Shown here one piece after another: positions 1-46,733 of a DNA stretch of 46,733 bases (positions are counted from its first letter, which is position 1; each line of letters starts with the position of its first letter). Location of the stretch: IMG/VR virus record IMGVR_UViG_3300006139_000008. One strand, 5' to 3'. This stretch comes from a virus. Lineage: Duplodnaviria; Heunggongvirae; Uroviricota; Caudoviricetes. A model generated the notes under the pieces. It saw only the letters and a program-made list of their open reading frames with translations. It was not told the DNA's origin and did no database searches. Made by a program: the position numbers and the translations under genes.

Positions 1-456
1 AAGATTTTGAATTTCAAAGAAGAACTAAAAGATATCAAAGTAAATGGAGAAATAATTGATGTAACCAGAATGTCATCAGCTTATATCCTATTACTCCTCT
101 CTTATCTTCGTGTAAATATGAATCGCAATCCAGATAAACCCTTGTGTTGCTACCGGCTGTATCAAAAAATTACAGAGGATATTGGATTATCAGAACGTTA
201 CATATCAAGAATTGTAGTAATATTGGACGTACTAAACATTGTGAAACACAAAGAAGGAAAGCGGATCAGATATAAAAAAGAAAAAAATAAATATGGCTTT
301 ATCACTATGCCAAAAGTATTTGCCGATTACAGACATTTTGCAAAAGATAAAAACGGAAACCAAAAAATTGATTCTGATTATGATTATTCAAATGAAATAT
401 TCAAACAATTAGAAATTTTAGAAAACAGTAAAACAAAATGTAGAAATATAAGTTAA
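1..456 (+). CDS. Hypothetical phage protein, probably 5'-truncated by the window edge
   Basis: Frame is open from base 1 (AAG ATT TTG...) to TAA at 454-456; basic protein with no motif I recognise. Confidence 0.6.
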   Translation, partial: KILNFKEELKDIKVNGEIIDVTRMSSAYILLLLSYLRVNMNRNPDKPLCCYRLYQKITEDIGLSERYISRIVVILDVLNIVKHKEGKRIRYKKEKNKYGFITMPKVFADYRHFAKDKNGNQKIDSDYDYSNEIFKQLEILENSKTKCRNIS

Positions 457-1071
457 GTGACCACAAACAAAAAATTTATGCCAAACCCTAACGGCAATTA
501 CTGCTTAAAAATGGAGACACCATATGCGGCATCTCCAAAGTGTGTACACAGCATTACGCTAAATGCTTAAATTTTGCAGTGAGGCTTACAATTCACTGGT
601 TGAAAATTAACAGTTACAACCAGATACCTTCTCATGAAGAAAAGACGTTCCATCATAAGAAGGCTATCTGTCAAAATAGATTTGGTCTTTCGTGACCATG
701 GCGTGTTCTACACCAGCATCATTTAACTTATTAATAATAGTCAATTCTCTATACACTGAAATGCAATAGCGAATCAGTCTATATGAAGCCCAGATGACTG
801 CCGGTGAGAGAACAATAATAAAATTACCATATGTTCTCCTTTCGTATGTAAGTTCTCATAGTACTTGGAGATATATGGCTTAGTATAAAAATACTAATAG
901 TGCAACACTCCTTTACCGTACCTGACAGTTTGTCAGTTGAGTTTTATCATCAAGTTACATTGTGGTGCACCAAGAATATTATAACAGTAATTGCCTTGTT
1001 TGTTAATAAAAAGAATAGAGCTGTAAACAACAATCAATAAATTATAGAAAAGGAGAAGATTTTATTAAAGA

Positions 1072-1269
1072 ATGACAATTAAAAACACAAGATATGATTA
1101 TGAAAGCCCAAACTCTCATTTTGGAGGAATCATTTGTTTATCCGATTTTGATACAACACATCCTAGCAAGCGCAATATTGCAGGACGAATTGAATCTGAT
1201 TTGAAATTTGATGAGCAATGCAGAAGAAATGAAGAGGCGCGAAATAAAAGAATGAAGGAGAAAAAATAA
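1072..1269 (+). CDS. Hypothetical protein (65 aa)
   Basis: ORF with upstream AAGGAG; first gene of a tightly packed run. Confidence 0.7.
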   Translation: MTIKNTRYDYESPNSHFGGIICLSDFDTTHPSKRNIAGRIESDLKFDEQCRRNEEARNKRMKEKK

Positions 1270-1271
1270 AC

Positions 1272-1625
1272 ATGAAAAGGTTGCATTACATAAAAACAAG
1301 TGATTTTACTTTAGACATTGATTTAGAAAACGGGTACTGGATCCGTACAGATGCATTATATAATTATGATTTAAAAAGATATACAATAACTTTCTACATA
1401 AAAGAGAACACTATTGATACATACCATGCAATTGAAACACTAAACAATGAAAAGATAAGTTTTGATGGGAACAGAAAAACTATTAAGGCAGATATCCTCC
1501 AATATGTTTCATGTTTATTGTCACAAAACTATTTTGATGATTGTATCAGGCACTGTGAATATGAAATCAAATGCTTTGATAAAGGGCATAATTTATTTGA
1601 AGATGAAAGAGCTAAACAGAACTAA
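1272..1625 (+). CDS. Hypothetical protein (117 aa)
   Basis: AAGGAG SD inside the previous gene; stop overlaps the next ATG. Confidence 0.75.
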   Translation: MKRLHYIKTSDFTLDIDLENGYWIRTDALYNYDLKRYTITFYIKENTIDTYHAIETLNNEKISFDGNRKTIKADILQYVSCLLSQNYFDDCIRHCEYEIKCFDKGHNLFEDERAKQN

Positions 1626-2068
1626 TGTTAACAAAGAATGATTATAAATATTTCAACAAAGCAAAACAAACTGCTGATATATCAGATTATACTAAAACAC
1701 ATGTAGGGTGTATTGCTGTATATCAGGGCAATATTATTGGAATCGGTTGTAACTGTAATAAAACCCATCCAATGCAAAAACAATACAACCAATATCGGGA
1801 TATACATACTGTTGGTAAAACTGATGCATTGCCAAAACTACATGCTGAGATTAGCTGCTTAAATTCAATCAGGCAGATGCATGTTAATTTTACAAAAGTA
1901 AAGCTATATATCTACCGGATCCGTAAAGACCAGCCTTTTGGACTGGCCCGACCATGCCCATCCTGTATGGCTGCTATTAAGGATTTAAGAATCAGGGATA
2001 TATATTATACAACAAATGACGGCTATGCTCATGAGAAAATAGAATATATCAGGGGAGGTGCTGCTTAA
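1625..2068 (+). CDS. Zn-dependent cytidine/deoxycytidylate deaminase-family protein
   Basis: HAE (LHAEI) and PCxxC (RPCPSC) motifs; N-terminal H-x-G-C/A-x-x-V segment. Confidence 0.85.
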   Translation: MLTKNDYKYFNKAKQTADISDYTKTHVGCIAVYQGNIIGIGCNCNKTHPMQKQYNQYRDIHTVGKTDALPKLHAEISCLNSIRQMHVNFTKVKLYIYRIRKDQPFGLARPCPSCMAAIKDLRIRDIYYTTNDGYAHEKIEYIRGGAA

Positions 2069-2304
2069 TAGCCTGTGAGTATTGTAAAAGGACAGTAAAA
2101 CATGATTTTAGATGCCCAAATTATATTCCACCTAAGGCAAATTATTATTGTTCATCCTGTGGCAACGGAATATACGAAGGGGAAGAATATATAGAAAATG
2201 ACAATGGGGAATTTTGTCATTATGATTGTTTTTATAACATGAGAGATTTATTAGGATGGCTTGGATATGAAATTAAGACAATGGAGGGAAATTACTATGA
2301 CTAA
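2068..2304 (+). CDS. Cys-rich putative Zn-binding protein (78 aa), apparent ATA start
   Basis: Not in ORF track. GGAGGTG at 2054-2060; ATA overlaps the previous TAA; open frame IACEYCKR...CSSCG...CHYDC to TAA 2302-2304. Confidence 0.7.
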   Translation: MACEYCKRTVKHDFRCPNYIPPKANYYCSSCGNGIYEGEEYIENDNGEFCHYDCFYNMRDLLGWLGYEIKTMEGNYYD

Positions 2305-2416
2305 ACCAAAGTGGATTATTCCAATAATACATAATCTTCCACAATGCATTTATATATGTTGGTGGAATAGTGAATGGTTCATTGATAAGAATAATTGGAA
2401 TTGGTGGATTAAATAG
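2297..2416 (+). CDS. Small Trp-rich peptide (39 aa)
   Basis: GGAGGG SD at 2283-2288, ATG 2297; MTKPKWIIPIIHNLPQCIYICWWNSEWFIDKNNWNWWIK. Confidence 0.5.
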   Translation: MTKPKWIIPIIHNLPQCIYICWWNSEWFIDKNNWNWWIK

Positions 2417-2505
2417 AAATTTTATTTACAGCTTTGAAAATAACTTCAACATTCTAATAGTAATAAAAATTAAGAACCAATGAATATATTAACCAAAGAA
2501 AGGGT

Positions 2506-5283
2506 GTGTGTTTCATTAGTGAATTTGGTATTAAAATAAAAAATATTAGTGCCGGAATGCTATATGATGTAAATTTAGGAATTAGAGATTATTTTACATA
2601 TACAGATGCTATGTTGAATAATAGTCTTTTTAGCTACTTTTTACAAAAAAATGGATTGAATGTTTACAGAGGTAAAAAAAATAAGGAAAATTCAAAAAAG
2701 GAAAGTACACGAGATATTATATGTCTTGATTTCGATTTCGGAAGTCGTTCATATGAAAATGAATTAAATCGCCTTGAAAAATTATTAAATGTTGATTTAC
2801 CTGATAATTCTAAAGAAAGAATTAAAAATGCAATTAAAGAAGTACAATCAAAAAAAGATTTGTATTCTGAAAAAAAACGTGGAGAAATAAGAAAACTTTT
2901 TTATAATGATGGTGTTAATATTACATACAAAACCAAAAATAAAGATGGCTCAGTTAAAAATGAACACACAATTCATTATAAAATGCTATTTAGAACTAGT
3001 GCAAAAGCAAAGCTAGGACAAGTTATATTTATTAATGATAAGTTGTATGACTTGGCATATGATTGGCTTACTATTGGACTTGGGGAGAAAATGCTCCATG
3101 ACAATGCAAAGATCGTTGAAATGTCTGCATATGCTCCACTTACTACAAGCACAATTATCGGAAGTTTACATATTCCAGTGGAAGATATATTGATTTTAAA
3201 TGATCAAAATTCACATTTTAAAACTCTTGCTAATATCGTAAAAGCAGAAATATACAAAGATAGAAACGGAAATGAAAAGAAAAAGTGTATTGTAAACCAA
3301 GAAACAATAGAAGTTAAAAATACAATCTGGGATGGAATGGGAATTATTGAATCAGATATTCTTCCTGAATGGATAAACGGAATGGCTCTTATGCGAAATC
3401 ATTTATTTAAAATGTGTGGGCTTAGAGGGCATATTCAAATGTTCTTTAAAGATTGGTGTAAAAAAAAGGGATACAATTACCAAACACACCAGATACAAGA
3501 TATGTTTGGTAATTGGCACTATATAAAAGATATTAAAATGATTACCACCGATAATTCAATTAAATGGAAAAAATTTATAGAACTTATGGGGGGAACTTTA
3601 GAATCCGCTTATTCATATTGGTGTAATCGTATTCATGCAGATGGAGATATTTGGGGAATAGTAAAAACAGACCATCCAAGCAAATTGGGCAAATACCAGC
3701 AATTAAGCTATCAAATGATTAATACTCTTCCTTGTTCAAAAGCAGATGTTAAGAAAATCGCACAGACTAGTATCGACTTTGTTGAACTGTTAAAGAAAGA
3801 CAATAATGAATTTGAAAAATTCTTACGAAAAAATGCAAATGAAATTAATCATTATGAAATGCTTGCAGATTTATATAATCAAAATCATGAATTCGGGAAT
3901 TCCAAATGGTTTCGAGAAGAAAAGAAAAAAATTATATCAAGTTATGTATCCCGTTTAAGAAAAGGAAAAATACTTGTAAATGGTGACAACCTTACTGTAT
4001 TCGGGAATCCATATGCGTTACTATTATACTCTGTTGGAGAAGACTGGACAAAAGATCCTACCCTCATTAAAGAAAATGATACTATCCAATGTTATACAAA
4101 TAGATTTTCGGATGGTGAATATCTTGCTGCGTTCAGAAATCCTCATAACTCACCTAATAATATTTGCTATATGCATAATGTTTATAGTGATGAATTACAA
4201 AAATATTTTGAATTCAGCTCAAATATTGTAGCTATCAATTGCATTGAAACTGATATTCAAGATAGAGCAAATGGCATGGATGAAGATTCAGATTTTATGC
4301 TTTTTACTAATCATACAACCATCGTTGAGTGTGCAAAAAAATGTTATAAAAAATACCCTACTATTGTTAATGCATTAAAAGAAAGTGGAATTACTTATAA
4401 CAATACTATGACTGATTATTCAAATATGGATAATAAATTTGCTGGCTCTAAAATGGGAATTGGATGGTCTAGTAATTTAGCACAATTGGCAATGACATAT
4501 TATTGGACGGAAAAATCAAAAAATTACCCTAACGAAAAGAAATTAAAGGAATTATATGATAATTTCATTATTTTATCTGTATTAGCACAGGTTATTATTG
4601 ATGGATGTAAACGTGAGTACGAAATTGCTGGGGAAGACGAAATAAAAAGAATTAGCAAACTGCCTTGCATGACATTGAAAAAAACTATTACGGATAATAA
4701 TGGTAAAATTAGAGATATAAAATGTGATTTTCCTATATTTATGAAATATACTAAGGAAATAAAATATGCGAAAGATGGCAAGGAGTTACAATTTGAAGAA
4801 ATTAGCGAAAAGAAAGCAAAATTAAAAAATAGGATCAATTATGATTTGCAGTGCCCTATGAATTGGTTGGAAGAGTGGTTAGATAAAATACAGGGTTCTT
4901 CTACTTCAGATACTATTCCAACTGAAAATTTTTTTGTTAAGATGAATGGTAAGCCTAATAACAGGCAAATGTCAAAAATCCGTTCATTAATAGAAAAATA
5001 TGATTTATTTGTAAAATCTATTAATATATCTGAATCAGAGGAAGAAATACTTACAAATAAATTAATTGCAGAATCAGACTTATTGTTAGAAGAATTAAAA
5101 AAAATCAAGATAGGGAACATAATCACCATAAACCGTTTAATCGAAACATCTCTTGGATTAGAAACTGGTGTTGGTGTAAGCAAAAAACTTATAGGAATAA
5201 ATACACGGTATACCAGAAAAATGTTAAATTACTTATACAAAATGAATCGTGACAAATTTCTGATTAATTTTAAATCTGTATAA
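2506..5283 (+). CDS. yonO: YonO-like single-subunit (RdRP-fold, double-psi barrel) DNA-dependent RNA polymerase; real start probably ATT 2515
   Basis: 925 aa; catalytic DxDxD-type motif GMDEDSD (4279-4293) preceded by AFRNPHN; SPbeta-like synteny with YonK-like, phosphoesterase and HU genes. Confidence 0.85.
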   Translation: MCFISEFGIKIKNISAGMLYDVNLGIRDYFTYTDAMLNNSLFSYFLQKNGLNVYRGKKNKENSKKESTRDIICLDFDFGSRSYENELNRLEKLLNVDLPDNSKERIKNAIKEVQSKKDLYSEKKRGEIRKLFYNDGVNITYKTKNKDGSVKNEHTIHYKMLFRTSAKAKLGQVIFINDKLYDLAYDWLTIGLGEKMLHDNAKIVEMSAYAPLTTSTIIGSLHIPVEDILILNDQNSHFKTLANIVKAEIYKDRNGNEKKKCIVNQETIEVKNTIWDGMGIIESDILPEWINGMALMRNHLFKMCGLRGHIQMFFKDWCKKKGYNYQTHQIQDMFGNWHYIKDIKMITTDNSIKWKKFIELMGGTLESAYSYWCNRIHADGDIWGIVKTDHPSKLGKYQQLSYQMINTLPCSKADVKKIAQTSIDFVELLKKDNNEFEKFLRKNANEINHYEMLADLYNQNHEFGNSKWFREEKKKIISSYVSRLRKGKILVNGDNLTVFGNPYALLLYSVGEDWTKDPTLIKENDTIQCYTNRFSDGEYLAAFRNPHNSPNNICYMHNVYSDELQKYFEFSSNIVAINCIETDIQDRANGMDEDSDFMLFTNHTTIVECAKKCYKKYPTIVNALKESGITYNNTMTDYSNMDNKFAGSKMGIGWSSNLAQLAMTYYWTEKSKNYPNEKKLKELYDNFIILSVLAQVIIDGCKREYEIAGEDEIKRISKLPCMTLKKTITDNNGKIRDIKCDFPIFMKYTKEIKYAKDGKELQFEEISEKKAKLKNRINYDLQCPMNWLEEWLDKIQGSSTSDTIPTENFFVKMNGKPNNRQMSKIRSLIEKYDLFVKSINISESEEEILTNKLIAESDLLLEELKKIKIGNIITINRLIETSLGLETGVGVSKKLIGINTRYTRKMLNYLYKMNRDKFLINFKSV

Positions 5284-5510: not shown

Positions 5511-6129
5511 GAATATTTTATTGTAATTACAAAGAACTCAGTGAAGATTGGTTTAGTCACCATGCTGAGAATATGTGGATGCTGCCAAATTAAACCTTGG
5601 GATACTTAGGGCGGATTTGGACTGAAATACCGTGAGATATATTAGGATAAAGGCAAAGTCTTAAAAGCAAGCATATGTACTGAGAATAAACGTAGTAAAA
5701 GGCTGTGTCTGGTTGTCATCGTAATAGACGCTTTCTGTGAAAGAATAACCGTGATGCCTATAAACTGGTAATTTGTAGGATTAAGTAGCGGAATACCAAA
5801 TAAGATGATTTGTCGTGAGTGCTGAGAAATTGGCACAATAAAACCAGTTCAACGATTGAGTAGGCCAAGACAATGAAACTGATTCTGAAATCACTCATAC
5901 ATATATTGTAGAAAAAACAAAATATTAATATGTATTTGATTATATTATCTGAATGATGGCTGAAAGTTGGGAGTAACCACCCTTCCCTGTACATAGATAG
6001 GTGCACCCTATTGGATGAAAAGTTTATGGCTGACGGGTTGTAGGCTCAGATTCATCTATACAGTGGCTGAATATTACTGCGTTTATGGAGGCAGCCCGAA
6101 GGGGCATTTGTAATTACAATAAAGTATTC
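5511..6129 (+). ncRNA. Large structured ncRNA, ROOL-like candidate
   Basis: 5511-5533 GAATATTTTATTGTAATTACAAA pairs with 6107-6129 TTTGTAATTACAATAAAGTATTC (23 bp, one G-U); further long-range pair GCTGCC 5581-5586 / GGCAGC 6090-6095; many local hairpins; no credible ORF; tRNAs just downstream. Confidence 0.7.
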
Positions 6130-6212: not shown

Positions 6213-6287
6213 TGGGGATTAGCTCAGTTGGTAGAGCGGTGTTCTTATAAAGCATGTTTGCCCAGGGTTCGAGTCCCTGATCCCCAA
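6213..6287 (+). tRNA. tRNA-Ile (anticodon TAT)
   Basis: Cloverleaf: TGGGGAT/ATCCCCA acceptor, GCTC/GAGC D-stem, GTGTT-CTTATAA-AGCAT anticodon arm, CAGGG-TTCGAGT-CCCTG T-arm; no encoded CCA. Confidence 0.88.
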
Positions 6288-6288
6288 C

Positions 6289-6364
6289 TGCTGGCGAGTG
6301 AAACGGATTATCACGGATGGCTCATACCCATCAAATAGCAGGTTCGACTCCTGTGCTTCAGCAA
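6289..6364 (+). tRNA. Atypical tRNA with CAT anticodon (Met or Ile2), irregular acceptor stem
   Basis: GTGA/TCAC D-stem, GATGG-CTCATAC-CCATC anticodon arm, GCAGG-TTCGACT-CCTGT T-arm; acceptor pairs only with a bulge or mismatch; G instead of U at position 8. Confidence 0.65.
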
Positions 6365-8102: not shown

Positions 8103-8378
8103 ATGAAGAAAATTGATATTGTAAATAAACTTATGGAATTACGTGACACCAATAAGAAAGATTGTACTGAAATTGTTGACCAGGTAATTGACATTATGAA
8201 AAATGGTGTTAAGGAAGATGGCGAGCTGGATATTTTCGGATTTTTAAAAATCACAAAAGCCCACAAAGATGCTGGCACGGCCAGGAACCCACGGACTGGG
8301 GAAACAGTTGATGTTCCAGAGAAGAATGTTCCAAAGGTAAAATTCTCAAAGACTTTTAAAGATTTTTTGAATGAGTAA
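8103..8378 (+). CDS. hup: HU/IHF-family DNA-binding protein
   Basis: GFLKI...ARNPRTGETVDVP...PKVKFSK signature; 91 aa. Confidence 0.93.
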   Translation: MKKIDIVNKLMELRDTNKKDCTEIVDQVIDIMKNGVKEDGELDIFGFLKITKAHKDAGTARNPRTGETVDVPEKNVPKVKFSKTFKDFLNE

Positions 8379-8389
8379 TTTTACAAACG

Positions 8390-8423
8390 GCTTACGTTCA
8401 AAAATTGAGCGTAAGTCTTTTTT
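8390..8423 (+). terminator. Rho-independent terminator after HU
   Basis: GCTTACGTTCA-AAAAT-TGAGCGTAAGT followed by a T-run. Confidence 0.75.
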
Positions 8424-8638
8424 GTTTGTAGAAATATAAATTAGAGATTTACAGTGAGTGAAAGTAACTGCCAATCAGTGAAGTGACTGATTACCTTTAG
8501 ACGGATAAACCATTGGTGGTACGCATGTGTAGGGTATGCTCCTACCAAACCAACAATGGGGAGACTTGGAGGATAATTACCTCCCACTCTCCTTTTACTG
8601 AAAATATTATTTTTGAATAAAAGGAGAAAACAAATTAT

Positions 8639-9391
8639 ATGAACGAAATTTTGAATCAACACAAGAATACTATTACAACTCTTGAAATTGCTGAAATGAT
8701 GGAAATATCACATAAGACAATTTTAAGAAAAATTGAAGGGTCAAAGGATCGCCGTGGTTACATACAAATTTTAACTGAGCACCAAATGGTGCCGAGTGAT
8801 TATTTTATTGCTTCTATATATAAAGACTCATCTGGAAAAGAAAACAAATGCTATCTCGTTACAAAACTTGGATGTGATTTTCTCGCTAATAAGTTTACTG
8901 GAGAGAAGGGTGTTTTATTTACTGCAAAATATGTAAAACGATTTGATGAAATGGAACAGGAACTTAAAAATCCATATAAACTTCCCACTACATATAAAGA
9001 AGCATTGGTTCAATTACTCGAAAAAGTTGAAGAAAACGAAAAACTCATTGAAGAAAATAATCATAAACAGGAAGTTATAAATGGTTTTACAGATGATGTT
9101 GATATTTATAAAAAACGTGTAATTATAAATCGCATATGTAAACGAAGATCTGGAAATTACGCAAATAGATATAAGGAATTATACAAGTGTTTTAGAGAAA
9201 CTTTTCACATTGATTTAGAGGCAAGATGTGAAGGATACAATTTAAAGCAAATTAAAAAGAAAGACCAGCTTACTACTATTGCTTATGCAGAAAAATTTGG
9301 ACATATAGACGATTTATATTCTTGTTGTGTCAAATTATATGAAACAGAAGTTAATGAAATTATTGAAGAATTGAAAGCAATTCAAAATTGA
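8639..9391 (+). CDS. Rha-family phage regulatory/antirepressor protein
   Basis: ITTLEIAEMMEISHKTILRKI...CYLVTKLGCDFLANKFTGEKGVLFTAKYVKRFDEME, then LPTTYKEALVQL. Confidence 0.85.
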   Translation: MNEILNQHKNTITTLEIAEMMEISHKTILRKIEGSKDRRGYIQILTEHQMVPSDYFIASIYKDSSGKENKCYLVTKLGCDFLANKFTGEKGVLFTAKYVKRFDEMEQELKNPYKLPTTYKEALVQLLEKVEENEKLIEENNHKQEVINGFTDDVDIYKKRVIINRICKRRSGNYANRYKELYKCFRETFHIDLEARCEGYNLKQIKKKDQLTTIAYAEKFGHIDDLYSCCVKLYETEVNEIIEELKAIQN

Positions 9392-12445: not shown

Positions 12446-12749
12446 TGCTAACTGGGAGAATAGTAACGTGCTACTCTCCCACTAATATCTTTGAAAAGTA
12501 AACCTACTCGGTATATGACTCCGCTATTAACGGATGTGTTCTGAAAGGAATGAAGTTCGATTGTTCTGCTTTGCATTTATGGAATGGACATAACAGAACG
12601 TATGCTGATGAAAAAGGGATGGTCAAATGTGTTTTGCAATATTTCTCATGGATATTAGTTGTTGTTAAAATATCAAAATAAAATATTGTATCATGATGTA
12701 TGGTCTTAAACAGATTTATGTAGCATGATAAATTAAACATTTCATTGGG

Positions 12750-13739
12750 TTAAATGTTGGTTATTATATTGTCCTGAAATTTCAATTCACCTATTTCAAT
12801 TTCTCCAATAAAGTTCTTTACAAAATTAGGTCTTATGACAAAGCATATTTCTGAGATATCCTTTAAATATTTCTGAGGCATACTATCATATGTTATTGGA
12901 ATAACAATTTCTTCATAATCCTTACCTATAGTGAATGTTTGTTCGTAAAATTTAAACAAATTATCACCACACTTAAATTCAATTGTTATCTTTTGAATAG
13001 ATTCGTTTTCACTTCTGCATTTGCAATAAAATATACTATTAGGGGTTATAGTACTCCAATCCTTATGTGGTACAAACTGATAAACACAACTAATAAAATT
13101 ACTTGGAATAGGGTAAAAATCATTTGCTTTAAAATTACAATACATTTTATGAAAACTGTTATCTGATTCTAGTCTTACCGCATCTGGATCACCATTTTGC
13201 GCCACACAAATAATATTTGCATCTCTAAAATTAAATCCATAATTTTCACTTACATATATTTTAACATTTTCTGTAAACTGTTTTATTTTATCAAACAATT
13301 CATGCTCTTGCATAAAATTTAATCTTGGAATTATTTGCTTTTCTACTAACTTATATTCATAGAGTTTTTTGAATAAATCTTCTGCATCAATTAATATGAT
13401 ACTTTGTATTATCTTTAATGGAGTATCATTTAAAACGCCATAATCTAACGGTGGTACAATAATTGGGAAAATATTATCTTTAAATGCCCAGGCAGCACCC
13501 ATTTCCATAATACAAAATTTACTGTTAATATAATTTTGTGTAATTAGAAAAATTACAATTTCTGAATCGTGAAGATTATCTTTGATACTCTTAATAAAAT
13601 CCTCACCAACTCTTAACGCATTATCCATAGATGTACAAAATATCTCATCATAATCAATATGAAATCCTTGTGTAAGCAAATCAACAAACATCAGCACTAA
13701 ATCTCTATCTTTTGAAGAATGACTTATAAAAATTTTCAT
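12750..13739 (-). CDS. TIR-domain protein with C-terminal beta-rich, carbohydrate-binding-like domain (start ATG 13739)
   Basis: MKIFISHSSKD...IVIFLITQNYINSKFCIMEMGAAW is a TIR fold with the conserved Glu; GAAAGGA SD; TG-TTATAAT promoter-like sequence upstream. Confidence 0.8.
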   Translation of the reverse strand: MKIFISHSSKDRDLVLMFVDLLTQGFHIDYDEIFCTSMDNALRVGEDFIKSIKDNLHDSEIVIFLITQNYINSKFCIMEMGAAWAFKDNIFPIIVPPLDYGVLNDTPLKIIQSIILIDAEDLFKKLYEYKLVEKQIIPRLNFMQEHELFDKIKQFTENVKIYVSENYGFNFRDANIICVAQNGDPDAVRLESDNSFHKMYCNFKANDFYPIPSNFISCVYQFVPHKDWSTITPNSIFYCKCRSENESIQKITIEFKCGDNLFKFYEQTFTIGKDYEEIVIPITYDSMPQKYLKDISEICFVIRPNFVKNFIGEIEIGELKFQDNIITNI

Positions 13740-13908
13740 CAGTTTATTCCTTTCATAATTAATATTTAAATTATAACACACAATGGATATATTTTCCATT
13801 ACAAAGTCGTCATTTATGTCGACTCTTTTTGTATTTTCGCCATTTCATACAGGGTAATTACTACCCTCTCCTGCCTTGAATGAATTGTTTCATTGGCAAA
13901 ATTATAAA

Positions 13909-14505
13909 CTAACTATGTCCATCGGAATTACGTTTACCATGAAGAAAGACTAAATATAATATTGTCAATATAAAACATGAAATAAATAGAATCGAATTCA
14001 ACAGTAAGAGGAAATTAAACTTTAATGTTATATACTCAATTACAATTTTGTAACATATAATCAAACAATAAATAATAGGAAATACCCATTTATATAATAT
14101 ATCGACAAAATCACTCATTTTAGGATAATTTGATAAATAATTTCCGCTTTCTCTATCAAATGTTATGTGTTCAATGTTTGATATATCTGATTCTATTGAA
14201 TGAATGCAATTATATTGTTTTTCTATATGTATAGTTGCTTGATAATATCTCATTGTCAAATACAATAGTATTAGCCATAAGAAACTTTGTATTATAGACA
14301 TTTGATTTGATATATCAATCTCATATTGTTTTTGAACAATACCTATAATTAAATATGAAATACTATCTGGTGATAATGCAAATAAAAATTGTAAAGTCAT
14401 CACAAGAAAAACCATTACAAAGAAACGATTTCTTTGAATAATGGTTTCTTTTATTATAGAAAATGTCTCTTTGTAATGGTCATATAGCAACTCTGTTTTA
14501 TCCAT
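13909..14505 (-). CDS. Multi-pass (~4 TM) membrane protein, putative defence effector
   Basis: Four hydrophobic segments; starts 5 nt after the stop of the upstream TIR gene. Confidence 0.7.
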   Translation of the reverse strand: MDKTELLYDHYKETFSIIKETIIQRNRFFVMVFLVMTLQFLFALSPDSISYLIIGIVQKQYEIDISNQMSIIQSFLWLILLYLTMRYYQATIHIEKQYNCIHSIESDISNIEHITFDRESGNYLSNYPKMSDFVDILYKWVFPIIYCLIICYKIVIEYITLKFNFLLLLNSILFISCFILTILYLVFLHGKRNSDGHS

Positions 14506-14510
14506 AATAT

Positions 14511-14936
14511 TTATGCTTCATTCAATGCCTTAATAATTGCATCCTGCGTAAAACTCATTGCCCATTTAGCTCCTGCCCCCATTAACTCATCTGGAGACTC
14601 ATATGACTTATCTATTTTTACAGCAACAAGTTTATTTTTGTGTTCTTTACTTTTTGCGATTTCAAAGTTAATCCAATTTTTATATCCTATAGCAACATGA
14701 TCTTTGTGCTGTGTATTCGCTTCTTTCCCAACGATCACAAGCGTATATGTAGTAGTATTGATGCGTCTTGTTAAACCAGCTTTAATGGTTGGAATATTAT
14801 TACTTTGAATTTCGTCCGAAGAACAATCATTAAAAACGAAATCCATATTCTTATTTGCGTCCCATGCATCTAAAAGAAATTTATAGTGCTTATCGTTAGT
14901 ATAATCGAATGATACAAATACTTTTTTCTTAGCCAT
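14511..14936 (-). CDS. thsB: ThsB-like TIR protein (DUF1863/MTH538-like)
   Basis: KKVFVSFDY...D...LVIVG...WINFEI...LVAV pattern typical of Thoeris ThsB TIR domains, with the conserved Glu. Confidence 0.75.
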   Translation of the reverse strand: MAKKKVFVSFDYTNDKHYKFLLDAWDANKNMDFVFNDCSSDEIQSNNIPTIKAGLTRRINTTTYTLVIVGKEANTQHKDHVAIGYKNWINFEIAKSKEHKNKLVAVKIDKSYESPDELMGAGAKWAMSFTQDAIIKALNEA

Positions 14937-15184: not shown

Positions 15185-15257
15185 CTGGATATAGGACAAT
15201 TGGTAGTCTGCTGGTTTTGGGAACCAGAAGTTGTAGATTCGAGTCCTGCTATTCAGA
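15185..15257 (+). tRNA. tRNA-Pro (anticodon TGG)
   Basis: CTGGATA/TATTCAG acceptor, CTGGT-TTTGGGA-ACCAG anticodon arm, TTCGAGT T-loop. Confidence 0.85.
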
Positions 15258-39998: not shown

Positions 39999-42900
39999 AT
40001 GGATGAGTTTTTAATAGAGCTTCAAGCGAAACTGGATGAAGCAAAATCAAAAGGCAATATCAATTCTGATATGGGAACACTCCAGGGACAAATTGATAAA
40101 TTAAAAATACAGGCAGAAATTGATCCAAAAACTGCACAAAAATTAGCCAGTGACATTGAGAAATTAGTCAATCAGAAAATTATTATTTCCAATATTGAAG
40201 TTGATACGACACAAACTGTCAAATCTGCGCAAAAGACTGGCCAGCAAATTGGGGAAGCCATATCTGATGCTGCTAGTAAAGCCATTAATAATGTCAGTTC
40301 AAAAAATATTGGGAAATATTTCAAAGTCAGTCCATCAGATTCAAAGCAATTCCAAAATGAGATGGAAAAACTTGTCAATGGATGGACAAATGGGAAAGGC
40401 AAAGTAAAAGATATAAACATCCAGACCCGTACATCTTATGACGAAAAATCTGGTCAAAATGTTGAAAGGATACATCAGGCACTTGTAACTTATGAAAACG
40501 AGTTAAATGAAGTGGTTAAAAAAACTATTGCTTGGAGACAAATTGGGACTAAAACTAATAACAATGGTGAAGAAGAAGCCCTTCATGGTTTTGTAGAAGT
40601 TGCTGGGCAATATTCTAAATCACTTGATACTGTTACTGCAAAAACAGATAATTTTGCAAAGAAGCAAAAAGAAACAATTGCTAACATGCAAAACACTATT
40701 AAGCAAATTGAATCAGGTGCTTATGATAAAAATTCTTCAAGGCCAATCACATCAGATGATTCGTTAAATAGGCTCGATACACAGGTGGCTTATGTAGAAA
40801 ATGCAATGTATGACCTCAAACATGCAACTGCTGAAACTTTTGATGATGCAAGGATTAGAGTACAGAATGAAATATCTGACCTTAAAATTTTAACAAAGGA
40901 ATTGAGAAATTCTGACAATGTATCAACAAAAATGAAAGGAACCGATTTATCGTCTGGACTATCAATTGCTAAAAATGATTTAGAAAAATTTAAGTCGGAT
41001 GCAAAAGATTTCCCTCAGATAACCCAGACTATAAAAGATTTAGATTCTGCTATTTCCAATGTAGGTGATACTGCATCTTTAAATACCTTCAATGACCAGC
41101 TCCGTGTTGCCAGATCTGAATTAGCAAAAATCAAATCTGAAACAACTGCGGCTAACCGAGAGGAAAAAGTTGGCATTAACATTTCTGGACTACAATCTAA
41201 AATAGCTGATTTGCAGAGAATCAGTCCAGAAATCGAAAAATTTAAGGCTGAAATAAATGGTGCTGAAGTAACCGTCCAAACTTTGTATTCTGATTTAGAA
41301 AAAGTAAATACACAAAGCGATTTCGGCGTTATAAATTCAAAATGGAAAGCATTTACTGATGCTGCAAAATCTGCTGGCATTGCTGTCACTGAGGTTGGTG
41401 ATAAGTATGATACATTTTCAAAGCAGTTAAAAAAAATACATACTGATATCGAAAATAAAACAATTGATAGAAATATATCAGATATAACTAAACAGTTCAA
41501 GCAGATTTCAAATGCTACAGATGAATTGAAGTCAGATTTTAATGAACTTATCAGGCTTCATGATGAGCTAAGTAAACCACAAACAAATGAAAAATTAATA
41601 CAAAATTATAATAAATTAAATGAAACTCTTTTGAGAGTAAAAAATACAATGGGTATTCTGAAAAATGAAAGTAAAGATATTTCAGAGCCAATTGATACCT
41701 TTGCAAGTCAAAAGAAAATAAACGGATTAGCTAATCGTGTATTGTCCTTTAAAGATAATAACTCAGCAATGTCACATTCTTTAAGTAATTCTCTGGATGA
41801 GATGTATAAACATCTAATAAGCGGAGTAAAAATTACCCAAAAAGAATTTGATAATTTAGAATCAAAATTTTCTAATATCAAATTGGAAACAAGGGAATCT
41901 GGTAAAATGGGCAAATCCTTTATTGGAAGACTCAAGGACGATATTAGCAATTTTATGTCATGGGGATTTGCAACTGGATTAGCTGGACAAGGCATACAAA
42001 CTGCAAGAAAAATGGTAAGCGAAGTATATAATGTAGATACTGCTATGACCAACCTATATAAGGTAACTGATGAAACAAAGAATAAATATAATGAATTCCT
42101 GACTTCTTCCAGTTCAAATGCGCAAGAATTGGGACGTACCGTGTCAAGCCTCGTCGAGCAATCTGCAAATTGGGCAAAGCTTGGATATACAATTGACGAA
42201 AGTAAAACTCTATCAAAAACATCAAGTATATATGCAAATGTAGGAGAAATTGATGATAATACAGCCGTAGCAGATATTGTCACTGCTATGAAAGCATATA
42301 ATATAAAAGCTGAAGAAGCAATTAAGATAGTTGACTCATATAACAAGCTAGGTAATGAATTTGCAACCGATGCAAAATCTTTGGGAGATGGGATTTCTAA
42401 CGCTGCCTCTTCCCTTGCAACTGCTGGTAATGACATGAATCAATCCCTTGGTATGCTGACTGGTATGACCGAAATTATGCAGAATGCATCAGAAGCTGGA
42501 AATGCCCTTAAAATTCTTAGCATGCGTTTGAGGGGTTATGATGAAGAGACAGAAAGTTATACTAATGACATAGAAATATTAACAGGTAATATTGCAGACC
42601 TAACTAAAACAGCAAAAACACCAGGCGGAATTAGTATCTTTTCTGATAAAGATAAACAAACTTATAAATCAACCTATCAGATTATGAAAGAAGTCTCAGA
42701 AATATGGGATGACCTTACTGATAAAAACCGTGCCCAACTGACAGAAGTCCTAGCAGGAAAACAAAGAGGTAATGCAATTTCAGCTTTAATACAGGCATTC
42801 CAATCAGGACAAGTTGAAAAAGCATTCAATGCATCTAAAAATGCAGCAGGTTCAGCAATGCAGGAGCAGGAACGGTGGATGGAATCATTGGAAGCAAAAA

Positions 42901-43142
42901 CACAACAGTTCCAAGCGGCATTCCAGACATTATCAAACACCGTTATTAATTCTGATTTACTGAAATTCTTTGTTGATTTAGGAACTGGTGCAGTTAATGC
43001 ATTAGATGGAATTATTGGAAAATTTAATAGCATAAGTGCACTTGCTACAGGCGGCAATAGTATATTTGGAACTATTGGAGCTTTAAGTGGACTTTTAATG
43101 AATGTAAAAGGTATTGGTGAACGTTTCGCGTTTCAGTGGTAA
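39999..43142 (+). CDS. Tape measure protein, TP901-type core; probably only exon 1 (to ~43118)
   Basis: Long helical protein with core (VDTAMTNLYKVT...WAKLGY...YNKLGNEFA...GNALKILSMRLRG...LAGKQRGN); ends in a hydrophobic stretch that runs into the intron-like sequence. Confidence 0.85.
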   Translation: MDEFLIELQAKLDEAKSKGNINSDMGTLQGQIDKLKIQAEIDPKTAQKLASDIEKLVNQKIIISNIEVDTTQTVKSAQKTGQQIGEAISDAASKAINNVSSKNIGKYFKVSPSDSKQFQNEMEKLVNGWTNGKGKVKDINIQTRTSYDEKSGQNVERIHQALVTYENELNEVVKKTIAWRQIGTKTNNNGEEEALHGFVEVAGQYSKSLDTVTAKTDNFAKKQKETIANMQNTIKQIESGAYDKNSSRPITSDDSLNRLDTQVAYVENAMYDLKHATAETFDDARIRVQNEISDLKILTKELRNSDNVSTKMKGTDLSSGLSIAKNDLEKFKSDAKDFPQITQTIKDLDSAISNVGDTASLNTFNDQLRVARSELAKIKSETTAANREEKVGINISGLQSKIADLQRISPEIEKFKAEINGAEVTVQTLYSDLEKVNTQSDFGVINSKWKAFTDAAKSAGIAVTEVGDKYDTFSKQLKKIHTDIENKTIDRNISDITKQFKQISNATDELKSDFNELIRLHDELSKPQTNEKLIQNYNKLNETLLRVKNTMGILKNESKDISEPIDTFASQKKINGLANRVLSFKDNNSAMSHSLSNSLDEMYKHLISGVKITQKEFDNLESKFSNIKLETRESGKMGKSFIGRLKDDISNFMSWGFATGLAGQGIQTARKMVSEVYNVDTAMTNLYKVTDETKNKYNEFLTSSSSNAQELGRTVSSLVEQSANWAKLGYTIDESKTLSKTSSIYANVGEIDDNTAVADIVTAMKAYNIKAEEAIKIVDSYNKLGNEFATDAKSLGDGISNAASSLATAGNDMNQSLGMLTGMTEIMQNASEAGNALKILSMRLRGYDEETESYTNDIEILTGNIADLTKTAKTPGGISIFSDKDKQTYKSTYQIMKEVSEIWDDLTDKNRAQLTEVLAGKQRGNAISALIQAFQSGQVEKAFNASKNAAGSAMQEQERWMESLEAKTQQFQAAFQTLSNTVINSDLLKFFVDLGTGAVNALDGIIGKFNSISALATGGNSIFGTIGALSGLLMNVKGIGERFAFQW

Positions 43143-43627
43143 ACGTATTGCGCCCACCCCTCTAAGATTACATAATAATGCCATGTAATTAACAGACGGG
43201 AGCATCAACCACTATAAATAAGATGGATACCTATAATTGAAATAAATTATAAAAACCGAATATGCTGGGAACCCTAAAGACTATATGAAACCCAAAACGG
43301 AACTGGAAACGGTAAACGGAAATGGTGTCGAAAGACGGAAAAGAACTCATATAGTATTCATATGGTGAGAACCTAAGTGTGTTTTATGCTTTTATACTTA
43401 CATGGACTTCTGATTTTATCTTTAATGATAACTTCCATGAAGTATTAAAAGGAATGGGTGATCTATAGGTAAACATGAAATAGTCATTTTATGTTGAAAG
43501 CAGGGAGATAGCTAAGTTGATTCTATACATCAATATGTTATTACCCCCAGAGACTGACAAGGTTTGGCTACATACAGGCGTAATTGTATGTGGCTGTGAT
43601 ATACAGTCCGCCCCTCGCGAAAGTGAG
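43119..43627 (+). ncRNA. Group I intron catalytic core (3' boundary not identified)
   Basis: P3 AAACC 43253-57 / GGTTT 43561-65; P TATGCTGGGA 43261-70; Q AAGCAGGG 43498-505; R CAGAGACTGAC 43548-58; S GTGATATACAGTCC 43596-609 (P7 GACTG/CAGTC); P8 43566-95; P9 CTCGC-GAAA-GTGAG. Confidence 0.85.
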
Positions 43628-43753
43628 AAGATTAAAATATGTTTCTATAAATAAAACAAATTTATTATGCTTTCAAAAAGTATTGAAATATTTTTATCCA
43701 TACTATATACTATATATCAATAAATACCAATTATATTATGGGAGGATAAAAAT

Positions 43754-43945
43754 ATGTCCGATAAACGAAATAATACGTTATTTAACATTGAAAATCCATC
43801 TATCGAAATTAATAATAACGGTACAATATATGAATCGTATCAAGAACGTCCACATGTAAATGCTTCAATAGAATCCAGTGGAACAACCCCTATTGATATA
43901 ACATTAATGACAGGGAACGGTAGCAATAACGAGGAAGGTGAATAA
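43754..43945 (+). CDS. Hypothetical protein (63 aa), cargo
   Basis: GGGAGG SD; overlaps the next ORF. Confidence 0.6.
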   Translation: MSDKRNNTLFNIENPSIEINNNGTIYESYQERPHVNASIESSGTTPIDITLMTGNGSNNEEGE

Positions 43946-44540
43946 TATAAAAGAATTTACGAATGTATTAGATAATTTACCACTAATACTGCAATACATA
44001 ATACCTGGTTATCTAACAATCAAATGCTTTGAATTTACATTATCAAAAAAAATTGACACAAAAAATCTGCTAATTTTTAGCTGTGCAATCAGTTACTGTT
44101 TTCTTTCCCTAATATCATTACTAAGAATAAAATGGCTAAAAACTATTCCAAATACTCCATTTATTAATTCAGCATTATCTATTATACTTGGTATAGTTGT
44201 TGTAAGTATTATCGCTATGTTGTCACAGAGGAAATGGTTTAAAAAATTAACTGTAAAACTATTTCACAAAACTTTAAATGACGATATCTGGCGTGATGTT
44301 CTTGATTTAGAAAATGGTTCTAATTTAAAAGTATATTTAAAGGACAAGGATTATTATTTGATCGGACATCATAAAAACCATGAGGAGAAAGGAAATGATT
44401 CTTGGCTTGCATTAAGTGGGTTTGCTAAATTTGATAAAGAAACAAATAAAAACTATAAAAGTGAGCCAAGCTACATAAACAATGAGAAAATTGTTATTAC
44501 TGTAAGATTTTCTGATATTGAACATATTGAAATATTTTAA
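43938..44540 (+). CDS. Membrane protein (~3 TM plus soluble C-terminal domain, DUF6338-like), cargo
   Basis: Hydrophobic N-half (IIPGY...); soluble beta-rich C-half; GGAAGGTGA SD. Confidence 0.65.
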   Translation: MNNIKEFTNVLDNLPLILQYIIPGYLTIKCFEFTLSKKIDTKNLLIFSCAISYCFLSLISLLRIKWLKTIPNTPFINSALSIILGIVVVSIIAMLSQRKWFKKLTVKLFHKTLNDDIWRDVLDLENGSNLKVYLKDKDYYLIGHHKNHEEKGNDSWLALSGFAKFDKETNKNYKSEPSYINNEKIVITVRFSDIEHIEIF

Positions 44541-44736
44541 CTGAATTATTTGGAGGAAATATAGATCAGAGACATAATAACAATGAAAAGATACAAAAAT
44601 AAACCAAAAAGTCCAATATTGGTTTAAAGAGGAAGTTATAAAGAATAGATGGGATAACGTAAGGTTTTCTGGAGGTCAATATATTTTAGAAAACGAGTTA
44701 AAAAAATAATTACATAAAAATAACCCTAAAGTAATT

Positions 44737-44877
44737 GACACAATCATATCTTTATGTAATAATGACTATAGACAGCAAGTAAGGGATGCTATCCGTAAAG
44801 CAAGCGGTTAGTCCCAAATTAATTTGATAATCAAAGATTATAACCGCTTAGTTTGGTAGACTGGGGCGGTTATTTTC
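44737..44877 (+). ncRNA. Putative type I antitoxin RNA with its promoter and terminator
   Basis: TTGACA 44737-42 then TAATAAT; ends in hairpin ATAACCGC...GCGGTTAT plus TTT, overlapping the toxin 3' end in antisense. Confidence 0.6.
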
Positions 44878-44953
44878 GTTTGCCAATCTGAAAGAACAAA
44901 TTAGCGATTGCACATATCACAAGTATTAACTGAAAAGTTTCACTAATAGACAT
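44870..44953 (-). CDS. Type I toxin-like hydrophobic peptide (27 aa)
   Basis: Not in track. AAAGGAGGGG SD; MSISETFQLILVICAIANLFFQIGKRK (one TM plus basic tail); minus-strand TTGACA/TACAAT promoter at about 45102-45080. Confidence 0.8.
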   Translation of the reverse strand: MSISETFQLILVICAIANLFFQIGKRK

Positions 44954-45255
44954 AACTGCAATCCCCTCCTTTACTACAATATTTCTTCCAGAGAAGATTA
45001 TTTATGTAAACAGAGGGTACCAGTCCCTCTGAGAGAAGGACTAACCGCCTACCGCTTTGGATAGCACCTCAATCATTGTAACATACTGTAGAATTATGTC
45101 AATCTTTATTAAATATTGGCGTAATAAATGTTCAAAGTTATTCTCCTACCCTTTTTATACTATTTTTCAATAATTTTCCTATAAATCATTGACATTTTCC
45201 ATATCTTGTACTACCATCAAATTAACTAAAATTTACCAAAATGGAGGTACAGAAT

Positions 45256-46227
45256 ATGGAATTTACCTGCCGCACAAGGACACTTCAGGCACTATACAAA
45301 GGCATCACTAAATCTTCAAAGATACTACTCTCCCATGAACTGCAAAGAAAAGAAGGGGCGTGGAATGCAAAACAGAAGTCAGACTTAATTGACAGTTTGC
45401 TACGGAACTACCCTATCAATCCTACCTATGGGGTAAAAGAGAATGGGATTCTTGCTATTATTGATGGCGTGCAGAGGCTTTCTACAATTAGGGATTTCCT
45501 TGATTCTAAATTTGCCTTATCCAAAACCTTAAAGCCGGTAGTAATTAACGGTGAAGAAAAGAACATAGCTGGGTTACGTTTTAAAAAGATGGATGACGAT
45601 ACGCAAGAGGCACTCCGCAATTCTGAATTGCAGATATATGAAATCACAGAATATACCGATGAAGATGTCCGCGAAATGTTCAGACGGCAAAATGCAGGGA
45701 CTGCATTAAAACCGTCACAGAAATTGACAAGTTCACAGAGCAAAGAACTGACCCACCTTCTATTTGAATTGTCATCATACCCATTCATCCAAAAAGTGCT
45801 GACACCTATACAGATCAAAAAAGATGTAGACCGTGACATATGCCGTGAAGTATTGATGTTATCAGAAGCATCAAAGGATAACCCTATTACTTCTTTTAGG
45901 GCAAAAGACATGGATGAATTCGTTTCAAACTATGAAATTGACGAAGGGAAAGTCGAAAACATTAAAGCTGCATTAGATAAACTTGATGAATCATTTGACG
46001 AAAATACTAAAATCCCTAAAACATCCATCAGCTTTATAATTTATGCAATGATGAGGGCAATTAAAGATAAAAAATCCACCCAGAAACTGGTGGACATAAT
46101 CCATAATTTCCTTGCCAATTATGATTCAAATGATGAATATAAACAATTCTGTGTACAGGGGACAAGCAATAATGTGAATGTAGTTGGACGACTAGATTAC
46201 TGGAGGGAAGTTGTAAAGACTTTATAA
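45256..46227 (+). CDS. DUF262 (ParB-like/GmrS N-terminal) domain protein
   Basis: LQRKEGAW...LIDSLLRNYPI...IIDGVQRLSTI motifs; GGAGGT SD before ATG 45256. Confidence 0.8.
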   Translation: MEFTCRTRTLQALYKGITKSSKILLSHELQRKEGAWNAKQKSDLIDSLLRNYPINPTYGVKENGILAIIDGVQRLSTIRDFLDSKFALSKTLKPVVINGEEKNIAGLRFKKMDDDTQEALRNSELQIYEITEYTDEDVREMFRRQNAGTALKPSQKLTSSQSKELTHLLFELSSYPFIQKVLTPIQIKKDVDRDICREVLMLSEASKDNPITSFRAKDMDEFVSNYEIDEGKVENIKAALDKLDESFDENTKIPKTSISFIIYAMMRAIKDKKSTQKLVDIIHNFLANYDSNDEYKQFCVQGTSNNVNVVGRLDYWREVVKTL

Positions 46228-46248
46228 TTTTTTAAATAATCATAATCC

Positions 46249-46289
46249 AAGGGGTACATGCGATATATTTATATTACATGTACCCCTTT
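46249..46289 (+). terminator. Terminator after DUF262 gene
   Basis: AAGGGGTACATG...CATGTACCCCTTTT. Confidence 0.75.
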
Positions 46290-46537
46290 TAGATTAAATG
46301 TGAACTATCTTCTGTATCCCAATACATCATCTTTTGTTCTTTTCACATATCATTTGTACCTCATTAATATACCACAGTTTCACAAATAAATCAACTATAA
46401 TTTATATTTAATTTCATTTATCTTATATATTTTAGTATATAATACTATAGCAAGTATTAATAATTACCAAAATTTACTTGTAGAAATATATCACTTAAAT
46501 TACTTATAATGAAAGAAAGTGGCTAAGGGTGATTTAA

Positions 46538-46733
46538 ATGGTTATAAATATTGCTGTATGTGATGATGAAGAATTTTACGCAAAGGAATTATGCAGTACA
46601 ATCAAAAAATACACAAAATGGGATGGACATTCGTATACACTACATATTTTTTCATCCGGCGAACAAACATCGGATGCAATAAGAAATGGACTTAAAGTGG
46701 ATATTCTTTTTATAGATATAAAACTGGATGACA
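46538..46733 (+). CDS. Response-regulator receiver domain (LytTR/AgrA-like), 3'-truncated by window
   Basis: MVINIAVCDDEEFY...VDILFIDIKLDD: acidic pocket and phosphoacceptor Asp; AAGGGTGA SD. Confidence 0.75.
   Translation, partial: MVINIAVCDDEEFYAKELCSTIKKYTKWDGHSYTLHIFSSGEQTSDAIRNGLKVDILFIDIKLDD

Follow-up and report, generated by a model that had tools for sequence, protein, structure and literature searches.

The window analysed here, 46,733 nucleotides (nt) of Caudoviricetes DNA (IMG/VR record IMGVR_UViG_3300006139_000008), comes from a large mouse-gut phage and carries towards its 3' end the first part of a tape measure gene, which runs into a sequence resembling the core of a group I intron. 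We consider it probable, at roughly 0.6, that the tape measure is encoded by one gene of 3,360 codons that is split by a 10,883-nt cargo-carrying group I intron and spliced in cis. The original prediction, made from the window alone, had given as its first alternative a cargo intron of several kilobases (kb) whose 3' splice site lies outside the window. This alternative is favoured by an exon 2 lying 10,883 nt further on, by the terminal G in front of it and by an internal guide that covaries with it.

The interrupted tape measure gene

The tape measure open reading frame (ORF) at positions 39999-43142 (+ strand) encodes 1047 aa with a match to PF10145 (PhageMin_Tail) and ends in ...KGIGERFAFQW*. 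In BLASTP and tblastn comparisons the match to relatives ceases at residue ~1040, and similarity to P0002 and P0018, homologues with an unbroken frame, reaches as far as position 43118, a T. As these relatives are longer, this indicates that the gene is cut short exactly after that T. Exon 1 is therefore taken as 39999-43118 (+ strand; 1040 codons, ending ...MNVKGIG). The frame continues for 7 codons past 43118 to a stop codon at 43140-43142, which is 22-24 nt within the insert. That the ORF ends in KGIG followed by an intron-like ERFAFQW*, with its stop inside the insert, had been noted before and agrees with this boundary, and it was likewise correct that no tape measure frame resumes in the 3.1 kb after the break. 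The tape measure of Enterocloster phage CB473P1 has 1,509 aa, that of Brevibacillus phage Sundance 2,528 aa, and those of metagenomic relatives have 2,000-3,900 aa; in one comparison, of the metagenome set, all had at least 2,000 aa. The same 1047-aa protein is encoded on public contigs identical to the window, including a contig of a metagenome-assembled genome (L004) with the same downstream genes. One Logan contig (L005, 7,907 nt) breaks off 121 nt past the stop of exon 1, where the conserved ribozyme core begins, as would be expected if related cores are repeated within one sample.

The second exon was reached by walking with a cargo gene to a 31-kb mouse-gut contig, L006, whose reverse complement (L006rc) is 100% identical at positions 1-5257 to window positions 41477-46733. 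This contig has a 2,375-codon frame that takes up the tape measure homology again. In P0018 the sequence is unbroken (...GLLMNKLGIG|AIQYNADD...), and its alignment jumps from window position 43118 to the AIQYDTKTD... of the resumed frame at L006rc position 12526, which gives the insert a length of 10,883 nt. It starts with GAACG following the U and ends in ...UAUUCG, and exon 2 begins directly after the G, ~7.3 kb past the end of the window. The downstream search that had been proposed, for a C-terminal tape measure exon preceded by an omega-G and a P10 complement, was thus successful in contigs identical to the window. Joined, the exons encode 3,360 aa (...KGIG|AIQY...; predicted junction peptide GIGAIQYDTK), close to relatives of 3,353-3,390 aa. 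With about 0.15 nm of tail per residue, this product would correspond to a tail of roughly 500 nm, and exon 1 by itself to one of about 155 nm.

Exon 2 is open over 2,320 codons. At its start there is no ATG and no ribosome-binding site, and its first 100 residues are without methionine. When it is compared with exon 2 of the related lineage L063, 1,321 aligned codons show 65.7% identity, zero stops and a ratio of nonsynonymous to synonymous substitution rates (dN/dS) of 0.155. Judged by this ratio, exon 2 is evolving under purifying selection. Exact 3'-junction patterns gave nothing, or one false positive (L064), in viral and metagenome contigs, and a query with P0018 residues 790-900 found no short protein fragments across the junction.

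The 5' ribozyme module

The insert opens with a 5' ribozyme module of ~510 nt (43119-43630, + strand) that extends from P1 to P9 and was delimited by manual assignment, RNAalifold and identity to a scored intron. On the + strand we placed P3 (43253-57/43561-65, AAACC/GGUUU, invariant), P4 (43263-66/43499-502, 4 standard pairs), P5 with a long extension, P6 (43503-05/43544-48), P7 (43552-56/43604-08, GACUG/CAGUC), which encloses P3' (43561-65) and P8 (43566-75/43586-95), and P9 (43614-27, CUCGC-GAAA-GUGAG). The elements follow the canonical core order, P3-P4-P6 and P7-P3'-P8-P7'-P9, with the P3/P7 pseudoknot. P3, P7, P8 and a GAAA-capped P9 had been recognised in this order in the original prediction; all four could be placed by hand and the last three were also recovered by RNAalifold. 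The usual P7 is GACUA/UAGUC, from which the P7 found here differs on both sides, itself a compensated change.

The RNAalifold consensus was computed from five lineage members (the window, L058, L061, L067 and L068) and has 154 pairs, 32 of them with pairing-preserving changes on both sides. It includes P5 and its extension, P6, P7, P8, where changes are compensated, P9, which is the final conserved element of the module (columns 524-537), and several peripheral hairpins. The hairpin AUUACAU-AAUAAUGCC-AUGUAAU (43167-43189, + strand) has three pairs changed on both sides (columns 64/84, 65/83 and 67/81). Compensating changes also separate the cargo-laden members, that is, the window, L058 and L061. 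Exon 1 of L058 and L061 is 90-94% identical to that of the window, and similarity among the three ceases immediately 3' of P9. Within the module, window positions 43292-43383 are 74% identical to a Vibrio phage intron, which the Rfam model RF00028 scores at 54.7 bits.

Some candidate pairings were discarded. RNAalifold paired 43265-68 with the CCAG before P7, which we rejected because the pairing is broken in two relatives. The loop at 43174-82 is complementary to UGGUAUUAUU in the 3' tail of the same intron, and this was dropped as a contact because the register is not kept in relatives. RNAduplex on long pieces returned bulged duplexes without meaning.

Predicted splice-site helices and the 3' tail

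The guide GUAUUGC (43145-43151, + strand; intron nt 27-33) is the complement of exon 2 nt +1 to +7 (GCAAUAC), so that a P10 of 7 bp with the start of the 3' exon is predicted, with 7/7 pairs in the window's phage and in L063. Compensating changes are found in two further lineages: L068 has GUACUGC with GCGGUAC, the pairing being preserved by changes on both sides, and L067 has GUACUAGC with GCUGUAC, a 1-nt bulge being needed for all 7 pairs. Immediately 3' of the P10 guide lies an invariant GCC (43152-43154, + strand), a candidate P1 guide that pairs over 3 bp with the exon 1 GGU at 43116-18, including a U.G wobble at 43118. This is the canonical arrangement, and the two neighbouring guides would place both exon ends side by side. 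The GCCA at 43180-83 was set aside as an internal guide in favour of the one adjoining P10.

A second sequence, GGAUACCU (43225-43232, + strand), can pair with AGGUAUU of exon 1 at 43109-43115 (RNAalifold columns 3-9/122-128) in a helix of 7 bp that is invariant in the 5 sequences and in which the U.G would fall at 43115. This helix may be a second grip on exon 1, or it may be the real P1, with the 5' splice site at 43115 and one Gly fewer in the product. Of the earlier proposal of a U-ending 5' splice site at 43118, the similarity boundary at this T therefore stands, while the exact site could be 43115. Clean-insertion logic favours 43118, because P0018 has GIGAIQY. The predicted DNA junction is ...AAAGGTATTGGT + GCAATACAATACGAT... 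for a site at 43118 and ...AAAGGTATT + GCAATAC... for one at 43115. An intron-side P1 hairpin is predicted at 43121-43146 (+ strand; ACGUUU at 43121-26 with AAACGU at 43141-46), and the alignment gives counterparts in L068 (GUACGAU/AUCGUAC) and L067 (GUACAA/UUGUAC). It overlaps the P10 guide, and in classical group I introns, too, P1 extensions overlap this guide.

At the other end of the intron is a 3' tail of ~90 nt, in which a hairpin whose loop, UCAGAAG, is invariant is followed by a linker and the terminal G. Besides the window's phage (L006), the start of exon 2 is known in L063, L066, L067, L068/L065 and L069. The terminal G is present in 6/6 lineages with a known 3' end (L006, L063, L066, L067, L068 and L069), and in 6/6 the hairpin lies 25-40 nt upstream of the intron end around the invariant UGUCAGAAGCA. 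Four of the 7 pairs of this hairpin are compensated, and its 11-nt motif is invariant. The tail loop CAGAAG is the exact complement of a CUUCUG in an internal loop of the 5' module (43407-43412, + strand), which does not change across the five 5' modules although its flanks do. This complementarity suggests a long-range loop contact between the two ends of the intron.

Compact and loaded relatives

The same modules are found in compact form in L067 (1,128 nt) and L068 (1,259 nt), whose introns consist of the 5' module, one backward double zinc-ribbon gene and the tail. Similarity between the window's phage and L068 falls into two blocks, one from the 5' splice site to P9 (81%) and one from the zinc-ribbon gene through the tail into exon 2 (81%), from which it follows that ~9.85 kb of extra DNA lies between P9 and the zinc-ribbon gene in the window's phage. 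In L063, with an intron of 15,136 nt, additional genes likewise lie between P9 and the zinc-ribbon gene, and L061 has yet another gene set. The window's phage and L063 share diverged cargo blocks (72-82% nucleotide identity), which indicates that the loaded state predates their split.

Among IMG/VR relatives the frame is broken in 21 of 37, in 18 of these 21 at the same site as in the window; the inserts measure 0.86 to more than 13 kb, and the group I-like cores at their start fall into at least two types. Further inserts occur at other tape measure sites (query residues ~765, ~844 and ~932, and the end of a 2,161-aa frame), namely in L017 (8713-10001), L020 (7871-9776), L035 (10265-12159), L037 (1127-2039), L039 (from 8912) and L040-L042 (from 14464), and some genes have two. 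In the close relative L062 a DDE transposase gene of an insertion sequence (IS) (13067-14599, - strand) immediately follows a 1,018-aa exon 1, so the site also takes ordinary insertion sequences.

Probable splicing in cis and its alternatives

Splicing in cis from a long late transcript is the most likely course, because it suffices for the compact members and every module is kept in the loaded ones. We infer from these sequences that splicing occurs and that it does so in cis, and the following model of transcription and docking is offered on the same footing. Late transcription would copy the whole stretch within a long late operon. The 5' module would fold and hold exon 1; the tail, once transcribed, would dock through the CAGAAG/CUUCUG loop contact; exon 2 would pair with the guide at 43145-51 (P10); and the joining of the exons would yield ...KGIG-AIQY.... 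In the prophage state the late operon would be silent and the cargo would be expressed from its own promoters.

In SPbeta-type phages the late genes form one operon that is transcribed by YonO, a highly processive polymerase without the flap domain that plays a part in termination at hairpins (PMC5467207). A 925-aa protein encoded in the window (2506-5283, + strand) matches phrog_8308 over its full length and has a DEDSD motif (DxDxD) at residues 592-596; a homologue of it in Enterocloster phage PMBT24 carries the annotation RNA polymerase. The protein had no match in Pfam or in PDB sequences, nor in a tblastn comparison with SPbeta. It may be a YonO-like late polymerase.

Several points count against splicing in cis. 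RNA contigs from runs X18-X20 and X16, compared with window positions 40000-46733, contain no exon joints and leave the border of exon 1 and intron uncovered, so that they are uninformative about splicing and about expression of the tape measure gene; those that match the window are a DUF262 gene of 97% similarity from a different context and tiny pieces at 44829-44891 and 45003-45032. The search with a group I model that had been proposed did not succeed, as RF00028 gave no match, whether the gathering threshold was applied or, for stretches of 3.8 kb and of 581 nt, a limit of E<=10. It also gave none in the tape measure inserts at seven relatives' loci, and in controls it found the Vibrio phage intron and missed the annotated intron of Staphylococcus phage Romulus. 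Since the model misses the Romulus intron and seven related loci, its negative result here is weak. P4 has only 4 standard pairs, and the P1 beside the P10 guide has only 3 bp, with the longer alternative helix putting the U.G at 43115. The loop-loop contact shows no covariation, both of its sides being invariant. The YonO-type identity of the 925-aa protein draws solely on the PHROG match and the DxDxD motif, and the terminator-like hairpins and antisense genes in the cargo might stop a host polymerase.

The last of these points could also favour splicing in trans, in which exon 1 with the 5' module and the tail with exon 2 would be two transcripts that meet through the P10 guide and the loop contact. 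The promoters, terminator-like hairpins and antisense genes of the cargo could split a single transcript, both intron modules bear complementary invariant motifs, and organelles have natural group I introns that are spliced in trans (PMC10027690). However, the compact members of 1.1-1.3 kb have the same modules and contacts with no need for trans-splicing, and the 3' piece would be only a hairpin and a G, for which contacts of 6-7 bp are weak means of bimolecular assembly. Just upstream of the tail there is no convincing plus-strand promoter, only weak matches inside the antisense gene. We therefore regard trans-splicing as unlikely.

About as unlikely is a dead intron in a broken gene, where the cargo has disabled splicing and either the prophage is defective or the tape measure is made from two polypeptides. 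The RNA contigs without a junction, the lack of an Rfam match and the weak P1 and P4 would fit such a decay, and the IS transposase gene after exon 1 in L062 shows that disruptive insertions occur at this spot. Yet the compensating changes among cargo-laden members and the preserved P10 guide are evidence of maintenance, as are the long open exon 2 with no start signal of its own and its dN/dS, which was measured against another loaded lineage. Moreover, the same split arrangement is present in runs from 13 studies, in some at high depth.

Excision at the DNA level, with a recombinase removing the 10.9-kb island before late expression as in developmentally excised elements, would account for the precise boundaries. 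We consider it very improbable, because no recombinase or integrase domain is found in the cargo, the boundaries coincide with the ribozyme modules, the terminal G and the P10 guide, and the runs compared with the window contain no contig with joined exons. Least probable of all is that the ribozyme, whose 5' module by itself holds P1 to P9, merely cuts the mRNA after exon 1 to give a tape measure of 1,040-1,047 aa upstream of an unrelated ORF, since that ORF is intact, without its own start and under purifying selection, resumes tape measure homology exactly where exon 1 ends and begins with the bases that pair with the guide, and since the relatives all have at least 2,000 aa.

Alongside splicing in cis we tentatively put forward a wider idea, namely that a family of phage group I introns has been turned into a modular cargo bay, in which the ribozyme ends act as fixed docking and homology arms around an island that phages exchange freely. 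Extra RNA contacts (the bipartite grip on exon 1, the covarying guide for exon 2 and the long-range loop-loop contact) would give the ribozyme time, on the scale of minutes, to await a 3' splice site at a distance of 10-15 kb, and completion of the tail gene would be coupled to complete read-through of the island.

The cargo island

The first 3.1 kb of the ~9.85-kb cargo bay lie in the window (43631-46733) and have ORFs on both strands; the whole island has ~15 genes, also on both strands. The cargo in the window begins with ORFs of 63 aa (43754-43945, + strand) and 200 aa (43938-44540, + strand), which are followed by a 27-aa hydrophobic peptide, MSISETFQLILVICAIANLFFQIGKRK (44870-44953, - strand), with no Pfam or Rfam match. 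From its sequence this locus looks like a type I toxin/antisense-RNA locus. Next are a defence-like GmrSD_N/DUF262 gene that matches the PADLOC NsnA model (45241-46227, + strand), a terminator-like hairpin 3' of it (46251-46291) and, from 46538 (+ strand), the first part of a LytTR response regulator gene. From the cargo described earlier, the DUF262 gene and the response regulator, of the LytTR type, are upheld, while the type I toxin-antitoxin pair is an interpretation of the 27-aa peptide. Further along the island are genes for a retropepsin-like protease, a Bro-N/anti-repressor-like protein, a P63C protein and several zinc-ribbon proteins, as well as sigma70-like promoters, some of them 12/12 to consensus. 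These promoter matches suggest that the cargo genes are independently promoted.

Short contigs from an RNA library fall on 44829-44891 and 45003-45032, around the 27-aa peptide; their depth is no proof of expression. A ~97%-similar GmrSD_N/NsnA-like copy of window positions 45171-46299 occurs with another upstream context in three RNA-type mouse-gut libraries, on contigs that end near the hairpin at 46251-46291, which shows that this gene is common to another element.

By Pfam and PHROGs, no cargo protein has a recombinase, integrase or transposase domain, or belongs to the LAGLIDADG, GIY-YIG, HNH, His-Cys or PD-(D/E)XK endonucleases, in agreement with the earlier reading that no homing endonuclease lies inside. 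The IS200/605 or IS607 transposase genes that mark an IStron are likewise absent, and a 185-aa ORF has a weak, sub-threshold match to Zn_ribbon_IS1595 and nothing more. The bays of relatives carry S24/HTH repressor-like genes, further DUF262 genes, a ParA-like ATPase and an M78 peptidase. Repressor-like proteins with an S24 peptidase domain, LexA- or CI-like, are encoded in the inserts of L063 (11562-12314, - strand), L015 (13353-13991, - strand) and L018 (16557-17288, - strand), the last with an HTH domain too. Because such genes lie in several relatives' inserts, genes for lysogeny control may sit in these bays.

The sole gene always present in these introns encodes a double zinc-ribbon protein and always lies backward, adjoining the 3' splice site. 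In L006 it is just upstream of the 3' tail (8180-8737, + strand of that contig, antisense to the tape measure), and homologues are in L068 (1625-2167), L067 (2813-3250), L066 (588-995), L069 (118-525) and L038 (10945-11238), all on the - strand. The protein has 8 invariant Cys and a C-terminal CPxC.S...C..C. No family match was obtained, and a structure predicted with a pLDDT of 68 was uninformative in Foldseek and Atlas comparisons. A function in mobility or in splicing is conceivable for it.

Comparison with known systems

Group I introns have been described in tape measure genes of the Bacillus cereus group (TMP-IVS1, 2 and 3; PMC2504315), and that in the tape measure gene of Vibrio phage ICP1 is spliced (PMC10448857). 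The present intron shares with them the host gene, an in-frame position, a stop within the first 27 intron nt and an IA-type core, and in both cases one site can host several intron lineages. Those introns are of ordinary size and are empty or hold one homing endonuclease gene, whereas here there are 10.9 kb and ~15 genes with no recognisable endonuclease. IStrons, in which a group I intron is fused to an IS200/605- or IS607-type element (PMC4227781; 10.1101/2023.11.20.567912), are similar in having the core at the 5' end and foreign genes between it and a distant 3' splice site, and in occurring in Firmicutes. They differ in being mobile tnpA/tnpB transposons of ~2 kb in total, while the present intron has no transposase and an unrelated cargo that is 5-7 times larger and varies between close relatives.

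The ND5-717 group I intron of corallimorpharian mitochondria, of 18-19 kb, is removed by back-splicing (PMC6545197). It, too, exceeds 10 kb and encloses many functional genes; in contrast, the intron described here has a phage host, accessory cargo after P9 and a normal exon order.

A peripheral loop holds an ORF in the classical phage group I introns of T4 td, nrdB and sunY and of SPbeta bnrdE/F. Like the present one they tolerate foreign coding sequence at the periphery, and peripheral loop-loop contacts stabilise the core. Unlike it, they hold just one endonuclease ORF, on the sense strand and of ~0.5-1 kb. In a literature search of incomplete coverage, no paper was found to report accessory cargo of several genes for a phage group I intron.

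Elsewhere in the window, an RNA of the ROOL family (RF03087, 291 bits; 5513-6124) lies directly upstream of two tRNA genes (6213-6363), and a third tRNA gene follows at 15185-15257. ROOL is a large non-coding RNA typical of Firmicute phages.

Should splicing occur, this intron would rank with the largest known of group I and would be the first described phage kind with a multi-gene accessory island instead of a homing endonuclease or a transposon. Hundreds of truncated-looking tape measure ORFs in gut metagenomes would be explained in the same way. It would also explain how temperate gut phages can accommodate defence, toxin-antitoxin and regulator genes expressed in lysogeny without cost within an essential late gene, and it would represent a natural design of a ribozyme that joins exons over more than 10 kb.

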